Part shown: in pieces, positions 16,151 to 31,454 of the stretch
Layout: each line of letters begins with the position of its first letter
Position numbering within the stretch: position 1 is the stretch's first letter
Made by a program: the position numbers and the translations under genes
Virus record (IMG/VR): IMGVR_UViG_3300025012_000043
Location: 32,001-96,000 of that record
Direction: 5' to 3' (one strand)
Length of the DNA: 64,000 nucleotides
From: a virus
The notes under the pieces: generated by a model
What the model was told of the DNA's origin: nothing
The model's database searches: none
The model's input: the letters and a program-made list of their open reading frames with translations, nothing else

Positions 16151-17171
16151 TAATTTTTACTCTATCAATTATATCATTTCCGTATTTATCTGACAATGTA
16201 TCACAATATGCCTGAAACATTTTCTCATCATCAGTTATATCTAGGCTTTTAAATTCTTTTTTGCCTGATATTTCATACTCTATTTTTAAATCATACGCAT
16301 CATGAACTATAGGACCAATACCTCTTTCATATTCTTCTTGGGTACAAGATACCTTTAATTTTACCATCTTATTACTAATAACCGGGTCTAATAAATAATG
16401 TTCAAGTTGCGCCATCTTAATTTCTGCTATATGTGTATCACGACACCCAAGCCACAAATTGGTGGCAGACATTGTGTCTGTATCAAATAACACAACACGC
16501 TTATCACCACTCTCTCCAAAATTTGAATTCCTAATGCCCCCGACATATAATGCGCGGGTACCAATATCTTGGGGCGAATGAATATCACCAAGAAATGCAA
16601 ACTCAAAAGTTGGAATTGCTTCTAATGATTTAATGGAGGGAAAATTCTTAGATTGATTGCTTATCATTCTACTATTATTAAACTTTGCTTCAACAAATGG
16701 TAGATGAGCAAACAACACGAATTTTATACCCATCATTCTTAAATCATTACATTTAAACTCAAACCATTCAACCGTATTAGTCCTACGATGTACTTCCCAC
16801 GGCAACATAACGGCAACAATATCATCTTTAATACGAAATGTTGATTGCATTGTATCATATAAAAATACATTACTATGCAAATCAAGTGTTTTTATTTCAC
16901 TTAATAAATTTCTATCATCTGACAAATCATGATTACCAGTTAATATATGAACTCTAGTCCAATAAGGGAATGACTCCAGGAATTTATGAAATCTTAATTC
17001 TTCTGCTCCGCCTTTCTGTATATCTCTACGATGATAGATATCACCAAGCAACACAACATTCTCACATCCGTGCTCATTAACAAATTTAATAATTTTATCT
17101 AAACACTCATCGGTGTCACTAACCCATTGTGAATCTAAATGAATATCTCCGACTATTAAAACTTTGGACAT
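16125..17171 (-). CDS. sbcD: SbcD/Mre11-like nuclease
   Basis: GDIH, LGDIY, GNHD, AH, LGDIHSPQ phosphoesterase motifs; adjacent to sbcC. Confidence 0.95.
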   Translation of the reverse strand: MSKVLIVGDIHLDSQWVSDTDECLDKIIKFVNEHGCENVVLLGDIYHRRDIQKGGAEELRFHKFLESFPYWTRVHILTGNHDLSDDRNLLSEIKTLDLHSNVFLYDTMQSTFRIKDDIVAVMLPWEVHRRTNTVEWFEFKCNDLRMMGIKFVLFAHLPFVEAKFNNSRMISNQSKNFPSIKSLEAIPTFEFAFLGDIHSPQDIGTRALYVGGIRNSNFGESGDKRVVLFDTDTMSATNLWLGCRDTHIAEIKMAQLEHYLLDPVISNKMVKLKVSCTQEEYERGIGPIVHDAYDLKIEYEISGKKEFKSLDITDDEKMFQAYCDTLSDKYGNDIIDRVKIIGKDILYG

Positions 17172-17240
17172 CAGGCTACCTCCCTAATTTCTGACGCTAC
17201 CTCACGATAGCTCTCGTGGCTGATCCCCAGCCCGGCAATA
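17160..17240 (-). ncRNA. Putative TnpB omega/reRNA scaffold, 3' part
   Basis: Two stem-loops in the last codons: GGCTG-GGGAT-CAGCC (17218-17232) and GCTATC-GTGA-GGTAGC with GNRA loop (17196-17211), then GGGAGG...GATGTCCA resembling an IS605 right end. Boundaries approximate. Confidence 0.45.
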
Positions 17241-18247
17241 AGAGTGTTGATCGCAGCATTAACATCGCGATCATGAACCGTCCCACAAACGTTACACTCC
17301 CAGTACCTTACCTTCAAGCCTGATTTCCCTGTTGGACCAGAACGCGCCCCACAGGTAGAACAGGTCATGGTGGAAAACTTAGATGGCACTTCGATATACT
17401 CTCTACCGCCTGCACGGCATTTGTAAGAAAGCATTGATCGAAGTTGTCCGTGGGCAGCTGCTCCCACGGACTTGCCAAACCCTGAACGAGCCAAACCACC
17501 CAAATTATCCTTACTAATCGCAATGACTTGATTCTTGGACACTAATTCACGAGATATCTTATGATTTCTGTCCTTGCGCTGATTCTTAATCCTTTCATGA
17601 AGTCTAGCAACTTGTTTACGATTTATACCACGCTGGGCTTGGCCCAAACGGATTAAATTATTCTGTAATTCCTTGGGGTGTTCAATCTTTTCACCAGTTG
17701 AAAGTGTAAGTAAGGTAACATATCCAGGGTCTATACCAACCTGATCATCAGAAACATGAGGGATAACATTAGGTTGGGCATTTATATTTAAACACAAGTA
17801 CCAGCCAGAAGCCCGTTTAATAATGCGGCCTGAATTTATCTTGCCTTCAGGGATATCCTGTTTATGGAATTTTACTAAACCTAGCAATGGCATTCTAACC
17901 CTATTATTTAGGGGTGGTTTAATGGGGTCTGGAAATGGGATAGAATTTAACTTATTTCGACGGCCCTTAAATCTTGGCTTCCTAGAAATTTTCTTAAAAC
18001 AACGTTGCCAAGATAACCAAGTTTGATCTAACATGCCCTGTATAGTATGGCTGGGGATGCCAAGTTTGCCACTATGGCCAGTGAGTAAATTCTGAAATGT
18101 TTTTCGTGAATAATAAACCTTATCCCTGGCATCTAACTCAATTTTACGAATAGCCCAATTCCAGACAGAAGTAAGATGAAACAGCCAAGTATTTAACTGG
18201 GCCTCTTGAACCTTGGTTAACTTTAATTTACGTTGATATTGAATCAT
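17171..18247 (-). mobile_element. tnpB: TnpB (IS200/IS605 family) RNA-guided nuclease, no tnpA in window
   Basis: RuvC-I GIDPG, Zn finger TCSTC...CNVC, RuvC-III HDRDVNAAIN; RuvC-II reads ISKDN where IEDL is expected. Confidence 0.9.
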
Positions 18248-24496: not shown

Positions 24497-27241
24497 TTAT
24501 TTGCAGCGACTCCATCCGCAAGCCGAGCACTCTATACACTTTGACATATGCACTACGGGATTTCCACACTCAGGACAAGCTTGTTTATATGTAATCGCTG
24601 AATCATGTTTATCCTTATTTTGAACCAATTTATTTTTATTCTCTTTTGCTCCTACATGAGTTTCTATCGCCACACATATGGCATCAGATAATGATGTAAT
24701 GGTACGCCCACCCTTATAGAAAGCCGTCTCCCCAGCGGAGATACCACGAAGTTGTTTCGTGATATATTTTGTAGACACACCACACCGCATAAGTAACGAT
24801 ACCAACCTACCAAGTGCTTCGGCTTCTGCTGCGATCGGTGACCCGGACCGCCCGGCCTTAATAATAACCTCACACAACCCAATATCATCTTCATTGACAG
24901 TGATTAGTGCGTCACCGAACCCAAAAGGTATCTCATATGTACGACCAGTTGGGGCCTCGATTCTAACTCTTGGCCCAAACCCACCATTCTGCTCAATTGG
25001 TTTGGCCTGTTGTCCGGAAGTCAAAACCTGCACACCCTTTGATCCATCACGATAAATAGTTACACCTTTACAACCAAGTTTATATGATAAACGATATGCC
25101 GCATCAATATCTTCTATTGTTGCGTCCTTCTTCATATTAATAGTCTTACTAATTGAATTACCAACATATTTCTGAAATGCTGCTTGCATACGTACGTGCC
25201 ACTCGGGAGCAATATCATGTGCAGTAACAAATATATACTTAATATCTTCTGGTATATTCATCTTCTGTACTGATCCATTGTGTTCATTAAATATGACATC
25301 AAATAGATCTGGGATATTTAAATTGCGTCTACGTATTTCCTCATCAAAATCGCCATGCAATTCACTCAATTTTTTATCGCCAAACGCCATACGATTATAT
25401 GCAACGGCGTATAAAGGTTCAATGCCTGATGATACACCAGCAATAAGAGCTATTGACCCAGTTGGGGCAATGGTAGTAACAATTGCATTTCTGCGGGCCT
25501 CACCAATCTTATCTAACTCCCAAGCTGGGAATATGCCTTTCTCTTTGCCTAATTCAATACTGGCTTCAATCGCACGAGTATTAATATACCCCATGATATG
25601 TTCTGCTTGCTCTAGCCCTTGCATTGAATTATATTGAATCCGCATCTTAATAAGTGCATCAGCAAAACCCATGACACCAAGACCAATCTTTCTGGTCTTC
25701 ATGATGGCATCTTTAATCTCTTGAAGAGGTTGTGGGCTAACATCAAGCACAGCATCCAAAAACCTAACAGCCAATGGTATTAACTTATTTAATTTTTCAT
25801 AATCCCACTCATAGATAACTACACCTTCTGAATCAACCTTTTTCTTTAGCATAGCAACAAGATTAATAGACCCCAATACACATGATTCAGAGGGATATAA
25901 TATTGTCTCACCACAATTTCGCCCAAACACACCACTAGAAACAACAAATTTACCATCTTTTTTGCTCGTTATTATCCCATAATTATGATTGTCATCCACA
26001 GTTATATTATATACATCATCATATCCATAGAATCCCACTGATTTTACTTTATGATTATAATATTGAACCGCCTCATCTAAGTTTTTATTATATTTATATT
26101 TATCTCTATGCCTATGTATATTGGCAACACTATTACTATTAAATGGCATTAAACTATCGCCTTCTTTTAACTCCTTAAGTTCTACCTTCTCACCATTACG
26201 CCTAATAAATTTGTGATCTGGTGTCGCAATAACCGTCGAATCGTCATCGAGTGTGAGCTTCCAAACTTCCTTCTTTTCTCCCGTAAGCCTAGGATTTTTG
26301 CCCCATTTGATCTCTACCTGTCCATTCTCCAAATTACGTGAATACACTGGCACATCATTACCCTCTTCAACTAATTGTCTAATACTAACCGCATTACGTC
26401 CATCAGCAACGGCAATTAGTGTATCTCCAACGACACATGGGTTTGATGCTCGCAAAATCCCAAGCGATGGCGTTGGATTGTCACGATTAACTCTATCAAT
26501 CCACAATACACCTGGGTCACCAATACGCCACGCCATCGACACAATCTTATCCCATACTTCTTTGGCATCTAATTCTCCGACTTTCTCTTTATTACCATAG
26601 ACAGGAAAATATAAATTATATTTCTTACCCTCGTCTCTTGCCTTCATAAATTCATCGGTAACAGCAACTGAAATATTCATATTCTGCGCAGCACCAGAAT
26701 GCTTCATATTAATAAATTCAAGAATGTCTGGATGATGGACAGATAAAATACCCATATTGGCTGATGGTCTAATACCACCTTGATCAACTACTGACATTGC
26801 ATCAGCATAAATTTTAATAAACTGAACAACACCACGAGTCTTATATCCGGTTGACTTAATAATAGTATCTCGTGGTCTAATATTAGACCAGTCCATCCCG
26901 ACACCACCACCAGCCTTTTGAATTAAGGCAGCCTTGCGATAAGTACTAAAAATATCATCTAATGAATCCTGGACATCCAACACAAAGCACGCTGGATAGG
27001 AACATCCATTCCCAGTACCAGCGTTTACTAATGTTGGGGTATTTGGTAAAAATTCTAGATTGGCCATCATGTTAGTATATGATTCAACCAATTCTTCTTT
27101 CTTCTTCTTGGGAAGCTCTTCACAACTGGCTATATCCTTAGCTACCCGTGAAAACAATTCCTCTGGCGTTTCATATGTAGACCCCTTTTTACGAAGGTAC
27201 CTTCTACGCAGTACCGTAAGAGCATTTTGGCTTAAGTGCAT
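24497..27241 (-). CDS. nrdJ: Class II (B12-dependent) ribonucleotide reductase with intein
   Basis: FLPNTPTL, ACFV, GGGVG, NPC|GE, C.LGSINL, TTIAPTG, SISKT, YRDGS, C-terminal TSCPD-like domain and Zn ribbon. Confidence 0.95.
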   Translation of the reverse strand: MHLSQNALTVLRRRYLRKKGSTYETPEELFSRVAKDIASCEELPKKKKEELVESYTNMMANLEFLPNTPTLVNAGTGNGCSYPACFVLDVQDSLDDIFSTYRKAALIQKAGGGVGMDWSNIRPRDTIIKSTGYKTRGVVQFIKIYADAMSVVDQGGIRPSANMGILSVHHPDILEFINMKHSGAAQNMNISVAVTDEFMKARDEGKKYNLYFPVYGNKEKVGELDAKEVWDKIVSMAWRIGDPGVLWIDRVNRDNPTPSLGILRASNPCVVGDTLIAVADGRNAVSIRQLVEEGNDVPVYSRNLENGQVEIKWGKNPRLTGEKKEVWKLTLDDDSTVIATPDHKFIRRNGEKVELKELKEGDSLMPFNSNSVANIHRHRDKYKYNKNLDEAVQYYNHKVKSVGFYGYDDVYNITVDDNHNYGIITSKKDGKFVVSSGVFGRNCGETILYPSESCVLGSINLVAMLKKKVDSEGVVIYEWDYEKLNKLIPLAVRFLDAVLDVSPQPLQEIKDAIMKTRKIGLGVMGFADALIKMRIQYNSMQGLEQAEHIMGYINTRAIEASIELGKEKGIFPAWELDKIGEARRNAIVTTIAPTGSIALIAGVSSGIEPLYAVAYNRMAFGDKKLSELHGDFDEEIRRRNLNIPDLFDVIFNEHNGSVQKMNIPEDIKYIFVTAHDIAPEWHVRMQAAFQKYVGNSISKTINMKKDATIEDIDAAYRLSYKLGCKGVTIYRDGSKGVQVLTSGQQAKPIEQNGGFGPRVRIEAPTGRTYEIPFGFGDALITVNEDDIGLCEVIIKAGRSGSPIAAEAEALGRLVSLLMRCGVSTKYITKQLRGISAGETAFYKGGRTITSLSDAICVAIETHVGAKENKNKLVQNKDKHDSAITYKQACPECGNPVVHMSKCIECSACGWSRCK
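25916..26437 (-). mobile_element. Mini-intein (174 aa) in NrdJ
   Basis: Begins CVVGDT after ASNP; block B ATPDHKF; block F DVYNITVDDNHNY; ends GRN before +1 Cys (CGET); no endonuclease domain. Confidence 0.9.
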
Positions 27242-27259: not shown

Positions 27260-27733
27260 TTATTCTGAAAATCCCGCTGTACTTCCGAAACCATTCTCAC
27301 CTCGTTCAGTCTTGGGCAATTCATCAACATATTCTATACGATATACAACCGATTGATGTAGCACTAACTGCGCCAGTCGGTCTCCCCTATTAACCACTAC
27401 ATCATATTTATTGGGATTCAATGCAAACACAAGCAAAGCGCCAGTAAAGCCCTCATCTATTGTCCCATCCATAATAAGTAACTTCTTTTTAGCAAATGTT
27501 GAACTACGAGGTCTGATTGATGCCCACGTTCCCCAGGGCAATTTTATACTAATTCCAGTTGGGATATTTATCATACCACCACTCGGGACAATAATTTTCT
27601 CTTCTTCAATACATACAACCAAGTCTAAACCTATATCACCTTCTCGGGCTGGCTTTAATACCGGGGGTATAAATGCCGCATTATCTAATACTTTTACCTG
27701 TAGCCTATTGCTCATTAAACTCTCCTCCTTCAC
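27260..27733 (-). CDS. dut: Trimeric dUTPase-family pyrophosphatase
   Basis: GLDL, PRSS, GTIDEGFTG, RLAQ, RGENGFGST. Confidence 0.9.
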   Translation of the reverse strand: MKEESLMSNRLQVKVLDNAAFIPPVLKPAREGDIGLDLVVCIEEEKIIVPSGGMINIPTGISIKLPWGTWASIRPRSSTFAKKKLLIMDGTIDEGFTGALLVFALNPNKYDVVVNRGDRLAQLVLHQSVVYRIEYVDELPKTERGENGFGSTAGFSE

Positions 27734-28217
27734 AAATATTCAATGACTCACCAAGCGTAAACTCCTCTGTGAGCTCTATAAAATTTTCAGCATTTATCTG
27801 CACAATCTTATTATTTAAAATATTCCCTAATTCTCTATAATTAGTAATCCATCTAGTATTAAATTGTTTGGCGACCCATTTCATATATACTGATATCTTT
27901 ACATCTGCGTCCGCGCACAAAATGACCGATTGATGTAATTTGTTTTTATTATCTATACACCACGAAACCTCTAACCACGTACCAACAGTTGGTATTCCAT
28001 TGATATAAACTACAACAATGTTGGCCCTTTCTAAGGCCAAACGATTAACATCAACTATATAATCTGGGTCCACATCACCCATTGGTATAAATGCCCTGCC
28101 TGGCATAAATAATGTAACATTTTGGTCCTTGTTAACTAAATTGTTAATTACATCATAATAAGCCAATTTATCGGTATTATTATCAACATTCCCCGCACAA
28201 TATACAGAGACTGACAT
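27705..28217 (-). CDS. Nucleoside 2-deoxyribosyltransferase / dNMP N-glycosidase-like protein
   Basis: VYCAG, F.P, N..AL.RANIVV, TVGTWLEV (conserved Glu). Confidence 0.65.
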   Translation of the reverse strand: MSVSVYCAGNVDNNTDKLAYYDVINNLVNKDQNVTLFMPGRAFIPMGDVDPDYIVDVNRLALERANIVVVYINGIPTVGTWLEVSWCIDNKNKLHQSVILCADADVKISVYMKWVAKQFNTRWITNYRELGNILNNKIVQINAENFIELTEEFTLGESLNICEGGEFNEQ

Positions 28218-28769
28218 TTACTCCTCCATCATCCTAAGTAGTGTCATCACCCTATCAACCTCTGCCGAAGTATTCCCATTAATTAGTGACTCTAAAAACT
28301 TAATTTTATCGTGTCTAAGCATATTGAAACATATGTCTCTAATTTGTTGCATATTTGTTTCATCCTTAGTAATCCTCTTCATTATTACTTCAGCAGTATC
28401 ATAATCATCACGATTCCTTTTAATTAAGCGCCCAATCCGTTTAATCGCTGGCGCATCAATATAGACCACGCTCCATAAATATGCCTTGAGGTTCTTGCTA
28501 ATCCAGGTAACCTGTCCCTCTGTCCTAGGAACTCCATCAACCAATATAATTTCCCTATTCGTTCTATTAATGCGATCACTGATCCCTCCCATGATAGCAT
28601 CATCATTATAATAAAGATCACCATTAGCCAGATCCTTATGTGAATCAGCAAGACTTCTAACTATATCGCCAGATGAAATAAATTCTGCCCCAACTATGGC
28701 TGATACTTGTTTAGAAATGGTAGTCTTACCCGAACCAGCCGGACCGATTACCCAGAGAATTCGTCTCAT
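28218..28769 (-). CDS. Adenylate-kinase-like NMP kinase
   Basis: GPAGSGKTT, ISSGDIVR, LVDGVPRT..Q, R.RDD. Confidence 0.9.
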   Translation of the reverse strand: MRRILWVIGPAGSGKTTISKQVSAIVGAEFISSGDIVRSLADSHKDLANGDLYYNDDAIMGGISDRINRTNREIILVDGVPRTEGQVTWISKNLKAYLWSVVYIDAPAIKRIGRLIKRNRDDYDTAEVIMKRITKDETNMQQIRDICFNMLRHDKIKFLESLINGNTSAEVDRVMTLLRMMEE

Positions 28770-28808: not shown

Positions 28809-31454
28809 TTACACATATGTTGGTATAATATTTGTGTCTATATTAATCTCCTTACCAAAATTTGCTGCCTCTCCAGCCCTAAGCGACCCAACATTAGGGT
28901 CTTTATCATAAAACACATCAATCATTATATCAGAAGGTCCCATTCTAACCTTGGCTATATTCATTGTAATATTGCCACGTTTTCCACCAAATCTACCAAT
29001 ATCATCTAATGATTTTTTAGTAAAAATAACGACCTTGGCCGCGTCTTGTGATAATTTGTACGCACCACCAACCCCCTCAACTGATCCAAACGCTTCTGAT
29101 TTATCTTTATTCTGTTGTGCAACGGTAACAATACACAACGGATCACGAGGATTCATTGCTCTATTTTGTAATAGTGAACTAGCAACATCTAATACTTCCC
29201 ATTTCTTCCCTACTTTATTATCTGATTTAATTAATTGAACATAATCAATAAACACATGTTTACATCCAAATTTTAATCTATGATATTCAATGATGCCCAT
29301 GATCTCTGAAATAGTAAAATTATTTGGCACTATAACATATCCAGGAGAAGAACGAAGCCGATTATATGAATCCATCATCTTTTGCCATTCTACTGACCCT
29401 TGAGGATACTTCCCAAGCCTAATCATCGTATTTGAAAGATCACAATCAATAGATATCATTCTTGTCCAAATGTCATCCCTAGACATTTCAGCAGAAATGA
29501 ACAATGATGGTTCCTGTGATATGGTGATGACATCATTAAACCAATTTACGGCGACAGATGTTTTACCAACACCAGTATGCGCGGCTACCATATGCACATA
29601 TCCTAATTCCAACCCAGACCAAGCTGTATTAAGTGTCGCCCATCTCTCAGATAATGGTGTACCAAGAATCGCCTTGCCGGATTTAGACCGCTCTATGTAA
29701 AGGTCTGAGAACCTATCAGCTAGATCTTGTGTTGATGATGTAACCATAGTATTTCTACGATCATTAATCTCAACTATTGAAGCACGATGTTCCTGCATGA
29801 TAACATCTACTGGTTTGTCTATATCCATAGACTCTGCCAATAATTTCGCCGCCACCTTGCTAGCACTACGTCGCATATGCAATTCTTTAATCTGTTGAAT
29901 ACAAAACTCAACATCTAAATTATGTTTCTGTAACGTTGCCCAATATTGTTGCAATGGTTTTTTAATGGTACTTAGTAAAATTTCTTCAGATATGGTGCTA
30001 TATTTCATCAAACATGAACACACAGTCTTATATAGATCTGAATTATTACGTACATAAAATTCGTGCTCAGCGATCTCGTGCCTGACAGTATAGGCAAATT
30101 CCTTATCTTCGACCATTAATTTAATAATAGTACTCTCGGCTTCCTTATTATGTATGTCCCTTGGATTTGACGAATATGTGATGAAATAATCAAGCGCATT
30201 ACAAATATTATACTTGATCTCTATATATTTAGATGCCATCTCACGATAAACCGTACTAAATTTATTAATATATTTACACACTACATCCAAGAATTTTATC
30301 TCTTCCGTTAATCCAGGTACCACACTATAAGCATTATCAATATAGAAATGGATGGGATGTACACTGGCATTAATATATTTACCAATCCCATCGGCCCCAA
30401 ATTCTTTCAATATCTCATCTGGATCTCCGCCCTGCAATACAACAAATGATACAAATATATTACCATATATAGTAAACTCATCAGCGATTTTTATCAACTC
30501 TCTCTTACCTGGCTCATCACCATCTGGTATTAATACTACTTCATTAACTTTATATTTAGACAACGCCCCAATTAAAACTGGTGATAGAAATTTAGACAGA
30601 CCACAAGTAGCTATTGTATTTTTAAGCCCGTGTGAATACATCTGTAATAAATCAATTTGTCCTTCTACCACGTTCAATTTATAATTATTATTTCTCAATT
30701 CCTTTCTAGCTAAATTAAGCCCATAAATCGAAGTCTCATCATACATCTGAGAACTTGATGATGACCCGACATATTTAACACTACCAGAAAATGGTCTTGT
30801 ATAAAATTGTGTGGCGTGTCCACTACTATTAAACACTGGGAATACTATGGCATTATCCCACATCATTGGATTACATAAATCAATGTCCTTCAAATCAGTG
30901 TATGGTATGGTAGTACCAAGTTTCCTAGTAATGGCTTCATGTAACCACTGGGTGGATACCGTATACCCTATCTTAAATGTTTTTAGGGTTTCAATATCAA
31001 TCTTACGTTCATTTACCATAAAAACAGATGAATCACCCAAATCCCCGAGAAGCGCTTCGTGGCATACTTCAACCACAGCATCATAAATTTTAGAGTGGAA
31101 GATGTGACGGGAGTCTTGCGAGGAATCGAGGAAGGGGGTTAGATCTATATTATATCGTTCAGCAAGTAACTGAGTGGCCTCAATTACTTCAACACCCTCA
31201 GCAAACTGTACGAAGTCAATCGCATTGCCGCCACGTTTACATCCGAAACAGTAAAAATAATGTTCACTTATTTCACCCGTAGTATTTACTTTGAACGATG
31301 GCACACTCTCCGAATGAAATGGGCAACAGAAGGCAGAATTAACACCCTGTACCTTACCATCTTCTCCAGTGTGCTGTTTGACCAACTCAATCAAACTTAC
31401 CTTATTTAGAACTAAACCTATAGCACCAGTCAGATTAGTTAAACGTAATCCCAT
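28809..31454 (-). CDS. DnaG primase-DnaB helicase fusion
   Basis: CHC2 finger CPFH...CFGC, TOPRIM VEGQID/DGD/DPD; helicase AAHTGVGKT, ISAEM, IDYVQL, AQQN, AKVRMG. Confidence 0.92.
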   Translation of the reverse strand: MGLRLTNLTGAIGLVLNKVSLIELVKQHTGEDGKVQGVNSAFCCPFHSESVPSFKVNTTGEISEHYFYCFGCKRGGNAIDFVQFAEGVEVIEATQLLAERYNIDLTPFLDSSQDSRHIFHSKIYDAVVEVCHEALLGDLGDSSVFMVNERKIDIETLKTFKIGYTVSTQWLHEAITRKLGTTIPYTDLKDIDLCNPMMWDNAIVFPVFNSSGHATQFYTRPFSGSVKYVGSSSSSQMYDETSIYGLNLARKELRNNNYKLNVVEGQIDLLQMYSHGLKNTIATCGLSKFLSPVLIGALSKYKVNEVVLIPDGDEPGKRELIKIADEFTIYGNIFVSFVVLQGGDPDEILKEFGADGIGKYINASVHPIHFYIDNAYSVVPGLTEEIKFLDVVCKYINKFSTVYREMASKYIEIKYNICNALDYFITYSSNPRDIHNKEAESTIIKLMVEDKEFAYTVRHEIAEHEFYVRNNSDLYKTVCSCLMKYSTISEEILLSTIKKPLQQYWATLQKHNLDVEFCIQQIKELHMRRSASKVAAKLLAESMDIDKPVDVIMQEHRASIVEINDRRNTMVTSSTQDLADRFSDLYIERSKSGKAILGTPLSERWATLNTAWSGLELGYVHMVAAHTGVGKTSVAVNWFNDVITISQEPSLFISAEMSRDDIWTRMISIDCDLSNTMIRLGKYPQGSVEWQKMMDSYNRLRSSPGYVIVPNNFTISEIMGIIEYHRLKFGCKHVFIDYVQLIKSDNKVGKKWEVLDVASSLLQNRAMNPRDPLCIVTVAQQNKDKSEAFGSVEGVGGAYKLSQDAAKVVIFTKKSLDDIGRFGGKRGNITMNIAKVRMGPSDIMIDVFYDKDPNVGSLRAGEAANFGKEINIDTNIIPTYV

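Follow-up and report, generated by a model that had tools for sequence, protein, structure and literature searches.

Three consecutive genes of a large uncultured phage, encoding a nucleoside monophosphate (NMP) kinase, an NDT-like protein and a homologue of the trimeric dUTPases, probably form a nucleotide-pool-editing module of a phage that is itself likely to replace adenine with 2-aminoadenine (Z). The genes lie between a primase-helicase gene and a ribonucleotide reductase (RNR) gene in the window analysed here, the 64,000 nucleotides that make up bases 32001 to 96000 of a 112.6-kb IMG/VR contig (IMGVR_UViG_3300025012_000043; CheckV completeness 76%). This reading rests on the structure and coupling of the genes, the folds and functional residues of their products, their clade membership, their co-occurrence with purZ, and the finding of no DatZ- or MazZ-type gene on the contig.

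A route of this kind has been described in phages carrying PurZ0, in which DutZ, a Dut homologue, hydrolyses dATP, dGTP and dUTP to monophosphates, and DmtZ, a dAMP hydrolase of the NDT fold, releases adenine and deoxyribose-5-phosphate and also transfers the latter to the Z base (Poubanne et al., NAR 2026; PMC12884076). The key residues of DmtZ are Tyr6, Asp12, Pro57, Asn77, Glu103 and Trp124 (a lid from the second subunit), Asp12 being proposed to recognize the 6-amino group, with D12A and D12R inactive; dutZ was present in 98 of 98 PurZ0 genomes and dmtZ in 85, 77 of these as fusions (PMC12884076). A 2025 preprint independently linked NDT and dUTPase domains to dZ phages. The core DutZ/DmtZ route is already published, for small soil phages, and the initial annotation of the window, which had proposed a purine deoxynucleoside triphosphate pyrophosphatase, a dAMP-destroying enzyme and a dZMP kinase as possible roles, recapitulates that mechanism. 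What is new here is the occurrence of very divergent DutZ and DmtZ members in large DnaE-replicated phages, the sequence signatures that mark them, and a conserved kinase partner. By homology to the published enzymes, the DutZ-type dUTPase would hydrolyse dATP (and also dGTP and dUTP) to monophosphates, removing dATP and supplying dGMP to PurZ0; the DmtZ-like enzyme would then split dAMP into adenine and deoxyribose-5-phosphate, and might in addition make dZMP by transferring the deoxyribose-5-phosphate onto free Z base. The kinase would phosphorylate the deoxynucleotide of a 6-aminopurine, the likeliest reaction being dZMP to dZDP, or might instead run in reverse, draining RNR-made dADP into dAMP for destruction, both of these roles being suggested by linkage only.

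The arrangement of the trio as three coupled genes between the primase-helicase and the RNR, as first annotated, is borne out by the open reading frames (ORFs), their abutting or overlapping starts and their GGAGGAG sites. Read directly from the DNA, the TAA stop of the kinase gene abuts the ATG of the NDT-like gene, with GGAGGAG lying within the final kinase codons; the dUTPase ATG at 27715 stands behind a second GGAGGAG and creates an 11-nt overlap with the 3′ end of the NDT-like gene; and 18 nt separate the dUTPase stop from the RNR ATG. The three genes are translationally coupled. Because the GGAGGAG and the overlap are found at ATG 27715, and because P0048, a database protein with 99% identity, has this same length of 151 aa, this ATG is almost certainly the true dUTPase start, giving a protein of 151 aa. 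The longer ORF annotated at first (27260-27733) does exist, but its GTG start at 27733, as given in the ORF list, was rejected in favour of ATG 27715 on the strength of the same coupling signals and the length of P0048.

All five trimeric-dUTPase motifs (I-V) are intact in the alignment of the dUTPase, including the GDIGLDL, RSSTFAKK and IDEGFTG sequences that had been singled out as atypical, and the protein, the single dUTPase encoded on the contig, scores just below the NCBIfam dut cut-offs. Since it is 34-40% identical to the DutZ proteins of Ghobes (gp55) and Wayne and about as close to ordinary phage dUTPases, its placement called for a tree. Among 87 sequences (FastTree, SH-like supports) it falls in a clade of 62 tips (support 0.984) with the Duts of the other phages that carry the trio, the Dut of Bacillus phage vB_BpsS-140, all PurZ-adjacent Duts, and the DutZ of Ghobes and Wayne. 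Outside the clade are all seven of the comparison dUTPases, from E. coli, Twort, a second Staphylococcus phage, Bacillus phage 0105phi7-2, Ralstonia phage RP13, Rhizobium phage V1VFA-S and Arthrobacter phage Pureglobe5, whose genomes we take to lack PurZ.

Two features of the dUTPase motifs are clade-wide signatures, namely RSS[T] for RSG[L] in motif II (RSS in 62 of 62 members, against one of 25 sequences outside the clade, the other 24 having RSG) and Thr for Arg after the aromatic residue of motif III (52 of 62 inside, three of 25 outside). The replacement of Tyr by Phe in motif III, which had also been listed as atypical, is no such marker: it occurs in just 11 of the 62 members (none of the 25 outside) and the characterised DutZ keeps Tyr, so it was rejected as an indicator of purine specificity. 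The DutZ of Ghobes and Wayne resembles the window dUTPase in being trimeric, in its five motifs and RSS[T], and in being the sole dUTPase of a PurZ0 genome, and differs from it in motif III (IDAGYRG as against IDEGFTG) and in the hairpin that follows (GELF[AS]G as against GALLVFA). A less retrieval-biased scan of IMG/VR, made with a Dut sub-clade of unrecorded context as the query, recovered two RSS-type Dut loci, both with an adjoining PurZ, and one RSG-type Dut, whose genome (185 kb, 86% complete) has no PurZ. We predict that the window protein is a dATP/dGTP/dUTP pyrophosphatase of the DutZ type; the original suggestion of a purine-directed enzyme gains from its clade and its RSS[T] and is tempered by the modest identity and the differing hairpin.

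The NDT-like protein belongs to no PHROGs or NCBIfam family and matches Pfam Nuc_deoxyri_tr2 only under the cut-off, and a HMMER scan of 1.84 billion cluster representatives returned three clusters below 1e-10 and 38 below 1e-3. In the alignment of these relatives, Y6, D12, P39, G79 and E83 are invariant and N58 and Y111 nearly so. The AlphaFold2 (AF2) model built on that alignment has a mean predicted local distance difference test score (pLDDT) of 90.5, and its best Foldseek matches are rat DNPH1 (4p5d), an NDT (8pqt) and MilB (4jem), the same structural neighbours as are reported for DmtZ. A hidden Markov model (HMM) made from relatives of the window protein alone recovers the Wayne DmtZ-DutZ fusion (6e-18) and Ghobes DmtZ (1e-14), and tblastn against 50,697 phage genomes gave a single match, to the Ghobes-like homologue of DmtZ in Gordonia phage Archimedes. 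When the family was compared with the DmtZ-group alignment by hhalign (probability 97.3, E 2.3e-11), Y6, D12, P39, N58 and E83 were paired with Y6, D12, P57, N77 and E103 of DmtZ respectively. The catalytic triad of DmtZ, Tyr6/Asn77/Glu103, which has Asn where Asp is usual, is thereby matched by Y6/N58/E83, and in the modelled phosphate pocket V11, Q13, V98 and G99 of DmtZ correspond to V11, N13, V78 and G79. Ghobes DmtZ (gp53) and the N-terminal domain of Wayne DmtZ-DutZ thus share with the window protein the NDT/DNPH1 fold and these residues, and they also share its setting, immediately upstream of and coupled to a DutZ-type dUTPase, in a genome with a PurZ0-like gene and with no DatZ or MazZ found. 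They differ from it in sequence (about 26% identity over the core), in the Trp124 lid, for which the window protein has no clear equivalent, and in lacking the extra 40-residue C-terminal helix and conserved acidic tail that characterize the window family. To judge from its sequence and modelled fold, the NDT-like protein is a predicted dAMP N-glycosidase/deoxyribose-5-phosphate transferase; the earlier suggestion that it destroys dAMP is strengthened by the DNPH1/MilB-like fold and the five aligned DmtZ residues, and weakened by the low identity and the unclear counterpart of Trp124.

The last ~30 residues of the NDT-like protein (window 27705-27800), INAENFIELTEEFTLGESLNICEGGEFNE, are nearly unchanged in relatives that are 53-70% identical overall. 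Because only the last few codons overlap the ribosome-binding site and start of the dUTPase gene, this conservation is mostly at the protein level, and the tail, lacking in actinophage DmtZ, could be a docking peptide. Elsewhere in the family, three database proteins of 225-252 aa (P0015, P0037 and P0039) carry the Asn-type NDT domain as their C-terminal half, with an N-terminal domain ahead of it. One of 37 NDT family members has a weak match to Pfam DUF1599 ('nucleotide modification associated domain 1'), a domain that may be another fusion partner of the Asn-type subfamily.

To place the NDT-like protein and its neighbours among viral genomes, we scanned IMG/VR with an NDT profile, seeded by a sub-alignment of the 37-sequence NDT alignment, and obtained 33 loci; a pattern scan with the NDT-like protein alone found nothing there. 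In 19 of the 33, an Asn-type NDT is directly followed by, or fused to, a Dut. PurZ lies within 10 kb in 13 of these and elsewhere in the record in two more (100%-complete, 178 and 166 kb), and the remaining four comprise two short fragments and two loci without independent information. The co-occurrence of the two subfamilies with purZ, which the initial annotation had named as a way of judging its proposal, is therefore seen in 15 of the 19 loci. Across 14 Asp-type NDT loci ('DLRM', no Pro) and a further one, L044, in which this position is occupied by neither of the two residues, an adjacent Dut occurs in none of 15 and a PurZ-like gene in a single record, that of L044. The association of PurZ with Asn-type as opposed to other NDTs gives a Fisher p of ~3e-5, a value that overstates independence in that many of the loci are close relatives.

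The full order of kinase, NDT and Dut after a primase-helicase recurs in other records (L005/L006 and L014-L016). In a 178-kb relative (L005/L007), whose PurZ is 84% identical to that of the window phage, the kinase, NDT and Dut are 69%, 38% and 63% identical to their window counterparts, and in two further lineages (L014-L016) the values are ~30%, ~32% and ~50%. All three of the trio records that are at least 92% complete hold a PurZ with Ser13, and in these three genomes we found no HD or YfbR domain and no MazG above the cut-off.

Two other kinds of viral NDT were encountered. Thirteen loci (L028, L030-L033, L036-L041, L043 and L045) make up a separate subfamily that keeps YLAGPID and the Glu nucleophile, has Asp in 'DLRM' and no Pro, and carries an N[AP][SP]NWLFG motif; these genes have no adjacent Dut, and PurZ is present in 0 of 13 records (9.9-166 kb). 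A 395-kb jumbo phage with direct terminal repeats (L044/L049; IMGVR_UViG_3300032132_000001) has both an NDT-family gene with neither Asn nor Asp at the triad position and a PurZ-type gene, with GSTGKGN and with Asn at the nucleoside triphosphate (NTP) site.

The PurZ0-like protein of the window has the sequence GSEGKGK, with Ser at the position of the essential Asp13 of E. coli PurA, and keeps Asp at the TKLD (guanine-specificity) site (FLDY), as do the PurZ0 of Ghobes and Wayne; the PurZ of SH-Ab 15497 has Asn there. It lies under the NCBIfam PurZ cut-off (199.9 against 300), and among solved structures it is closest to archaeal PurA and to a 'PurA-like' phage enzyme (7vf6), with the PurZ of phiVC8 and S-2L coming next. 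In a quick tree it falls on the side of PurZ0, grouped with the PurZ proteins from other phages that carry the trio (support 0.97). No YfbR/DatZ, HD, MazG, DUF550, DUF5664 or PurB domain was found on the 76%-complete contig, and the region that we examined showed no PolA-type DpoZ. In S-2L, phiVC8 and SH-Ab 15497, the combination of DatZ with MazZ/DUF550-DUF5664 serves the purpose that we propose for the trio, to remove dATP and supply dGMP, through HD and MazG-like folds unrelated to the trio enzymes.

The third member of the trio, the kinase, gives an AF2 model (pLDDT 86) nearest to UMP/CMP kinase (1uke) and AK1 (TM-score 0.75-0.80). When aligned to E. coli Adk it keeps G7, G12, K13, G32, D33, R36, D84, P87, R88, Q92, R119, R123, R156 and D159; since the catalytic and NMP-site residues are all kept, it appears catalytically complete and should be active, with an NMP site that by its sequence (PRxxxQ) is of the adenylate type. 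It shares the fold, the P-loop, Arg36/Arg88/Gln92 and the catalytic Arg and Asp with E. coli Adk, vertebrate AK1 and Dictyostelium UMP/CMP kinase, and is without the long LID, its LID being short as in AK1. It departs from the Adk family in identity (~22% to E. coli Adk) and in a KR[IL][ST]KD motif of its own. Its Pfam ADK score is above the cut-off (39.1 against 26.8 bits), and it falls far under every NCBIfam adk cut-off (best 54.8 bits against 168).

The sole match to the kinase among the 50,697 phage genomes is the 'adk' of vB_BpsS-140, a PurZ phage. When IMG/VR was scanned with the kinase profile, nothing came up beyond relatives already known and sequences that match in the P-loop alone. 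Within these two collections the family, a narrow one, has so far been seen just in PurZ phages. A small contig (L067:2048-4138; IMGVR_UViG_3300031280_000244) independently shows a kinase gene flanked by PurZ and a DutZ-type Dut: its gene row reads gp32-like single-stranded DNA-binding protein, PurZ, divergent ADK-like P-loop kinase, DutZ-type dUTPase and DnaB. The kinase homologue there has the motifs DGFPRT..Q and KRLSKD (HMM 6e-8, hhalign 1e-4) and overlaps the Dut start.

From this linkage and the adenine-type NMP site, we infer that the kinase may phosphorylate dZMP. An altered specificity is to be expected mainly because an adenylate kinase returning dAMP to dADP would work against a Z genome. 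In the limited literature set that we searched, no paper ties an adenylate-kinase-like enzyme to Z phages or to Z synthesis. More tentatively, the kinase may be a dedicated phage dZMP (6-aminopurine deoxynucleoside monophosphate) kinase that, together with DutZ and DmtZ, makes up a self-contained line from dATP through dAMP and dZMP to dZDP, replacing the host GMP kinase step in large DnaE-replicated Z phages. We consider it rather unlikely that the enzyme is instead mainly a reverse adenylate kinase, turning RNR-made dADP and ADP into dAMP and ATP, with the dAMP then destroyed by DmtZ, and is not a dZMP kinase. Such a role would fit the RNR gene immediately downstream in the same gene string and the Adk-type NMP site with Gln92. 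It would also deal with dADP, which would otherwise escape the dUTPase-family enzymes, as these act on triphosphates; for the DatZ of PurZ phages, removal of dADP besides dATP has been reported. However, the RNR gene is not adjacent in L014-L016, vB_BpsS-140 or L067, and forward and reverse roles are not mutually exclusive.

Several observations weigh against the assignment of the trio to Z metabolism. The similarity of the dUTPase to DutZ is, as noted, about that to ordinary phage enzymes, and the background of non-Z dUTPases in the tree is small (seven presumed PurZ-less and 18 of unrecorded context). Its hairpin after motif III differs from the G[EP]LF of the characterised DutZ, and therefore purine activity is not assured and the base preference may differ. 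The NDT-like protein is only 26% identical to Ghobes DmtZ, over 76 residues. The lid residue Trp124 of DmtZ is without a clear counterpart; the hhalign alignment ends before this region, and the nearly invariant Y111 or W114 are candidates. The Asn-type group in which the protein is placed with Ghobes and Wayne DmtZ, apart from the Asp-type NDTs, has unsupported deep nodes. Most of the loci of known context came from searches that started from PurZ or NDT, and the association is biased accordingly; the contig is incomplete; the literature credits dZMP phosphorylation to the host GMP kinase; and, as the trio stands in a vertically inherited replication module, the linkage of the kinase could reflect shared ancestry and not function.

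If the trio were unrelated to Z, it might be a set of ordinary housekeeping nucleotide genes of a large phage, with a dUTPase that excludes uracil, an NDT-like enzyme that salvages or cleans other nucleotides and a general (deoxy)NMP kinase. The genes do sit in a replication and RNR module, where such enzymes are expected, and the dUTPase, which keeps its five motifs, must as the only one in the genome cover dUTP too, a substrate that the characterised DutZ enzymes still hydrolyse. This explanation nevertheless appears improbable, given that the Dut clade and the Asn-type NDTs occur with PurZ in almost all records of sufficient length for a verdict, whereas the sister Asp-type NDTs and the RSG-type Dut of the 86%-complete genome do not. 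Moreover, the NDT-like protein carries the equivalents of DmtZ Asp12 and Asn77, unlike the usual residues of other NDT-family hydrolases, and the genome has a PurZ and no other dATP-removing enzyme that we could find. Very improbable, finally, is the reading that the NDT-like enzyme works in some other kind of base modification, as a MilB-, BcmB- or DNPH1-like N-glycosidase of another (d)NMP, with the PurZ-like gene functionally unlinked. MilB and BcmB, which are CMP/hmCMP glycosidases, and DNPH1, which hydrolyses hmdUMP, are indeed among its structural neighbours, it has no above-threshold Pfam or PHROGs family, and its C-terminal helix and acidic tail are unique, but the Asp12 proposed for 6-amino recognition and the triad Asn are invariant, an NDT followed by or fused to a Dut is also how DmtZ and DutZ are arranged in the published phages, and no pyrimidine hypermodification genes were seen adjoining the NDT-like gene. 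As far as homology, functional residues and co-occurrence can show, the DutZ and DmtZ assignments appear right.

The window phage differs in several respects from the 43-45-kb actinophages that carry DmtZ, being of low GC, DnaE-replicated and more than 112 kb in size, and its NDT-like gene is 15 kb from purZ, where the actinophage dmtZ is beside it. Closer in gene order is Bacillus phage vB_BpsS-140 (MH884512, L003), whose row of purA-like gene, recA, helicase, primase, adk, dut and DnaE (with gaps between the first four) is syntenic with the window and which likewise has an NDT-family gene and a Ser13 PurZ. In vB_BpsS-140, however, the NDT gene is elsewhere and on the other strand, the identities are 24-34%, and the PurZ is on the Asn-type PurZ branch, not that of PurZ0. 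Because its Dut lies within the clade of the window trio (support 0.865) and its PurZ (NTP site FANY) groups with the Asn-type PurZ of SH-Ab 15497 (0.905), the PurZ and helper genes of this lineage seem to have different histories.

The genes around the trio are all on the minus strand (Table 1). Its DNA had zero blastn matches in the 50,697 phage genomes. Synteny links the primase-helicase to the primases found in L005, L014-L016 and vB_BpsS-140, and homologous DnaE genes come after the trio in L014, L015 and vB_BpsS-140. The 178-kb relative has an extra ORF of 239 aa (L005:8240-8959) between primase-helicase and kinase, which the window is without. The intein of the window RNR occupies residues 277-421 (Pfam Intein_splicing); the RNR of the 178-kb relative is longer (1186 aa) and aligns to it in two separate blocks, a pattern that points to an insertion of another kind or of greater size. 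A TnpB-like gene (Cas12f1-like_TNB, OrfB_IS605) stands at 17171-18247 of the window, flanked by the genes for DnaE and for a calcineurin-like phosphoesterase.

Table 1. Positions in the window of the trio, its neighbours and the replication and PurZ0-like genes discussed in the text (Pfam values are E-values).
Feature	Position	Strand	Basis
NMP kinase, short-LID adenylate-kinase family, 183 aa	28218-28769	-	Pfam AAA_17 1e-13, ADK 1e-9
NDT-like protein, DmtZ-like, 170 aa	27705-28217	-	Pfam Nuc_deoxyri_tr2 0.0024 (sub-cut-off), AF2 fold
DutZ-type trimeric dUTPase homologue, 151 aa	27260-27715 (ORF to 27733)	-	Pfam dUTPase 1.4e-23
Primase-helicase, upstream neighbour	28809-31454	-	Pfam Zn_ribbon_DnaG, Toprim, DnaB_C
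Class II-type RNR with intein, downstream neighbour	24497-27241	-	Pfam Ribonuc_red_lgC 7e-122, TSCPD, Intein_splicing
DnaE-type polymerase, 1190 aa	18481-22053	-	
PurZ0-like succino-amino-deoxyadenylate synthetase, 393 aa	43117-44298	-	Pfam Adenylsucc_synt 1.4e-50

The predicted functions of the trio extend the DutZ/DmtZ adenine-purging route from 43-45-kb actinophages to large, low-GC, DnaE-replicated uncultured phages, and provide signatures by which Z-linked enzymes can be told from ordinary members of their families, namely RSS[T] in motif II of Dut and, in NDT, the Asn-type triad with Asp12 and Pro. The kinase family is a candidate for the missing phage-encoded phosphorylation step, and confirmation of this role would alter the smallest set of genes needed to produce Z-DNA in a heterologous host.

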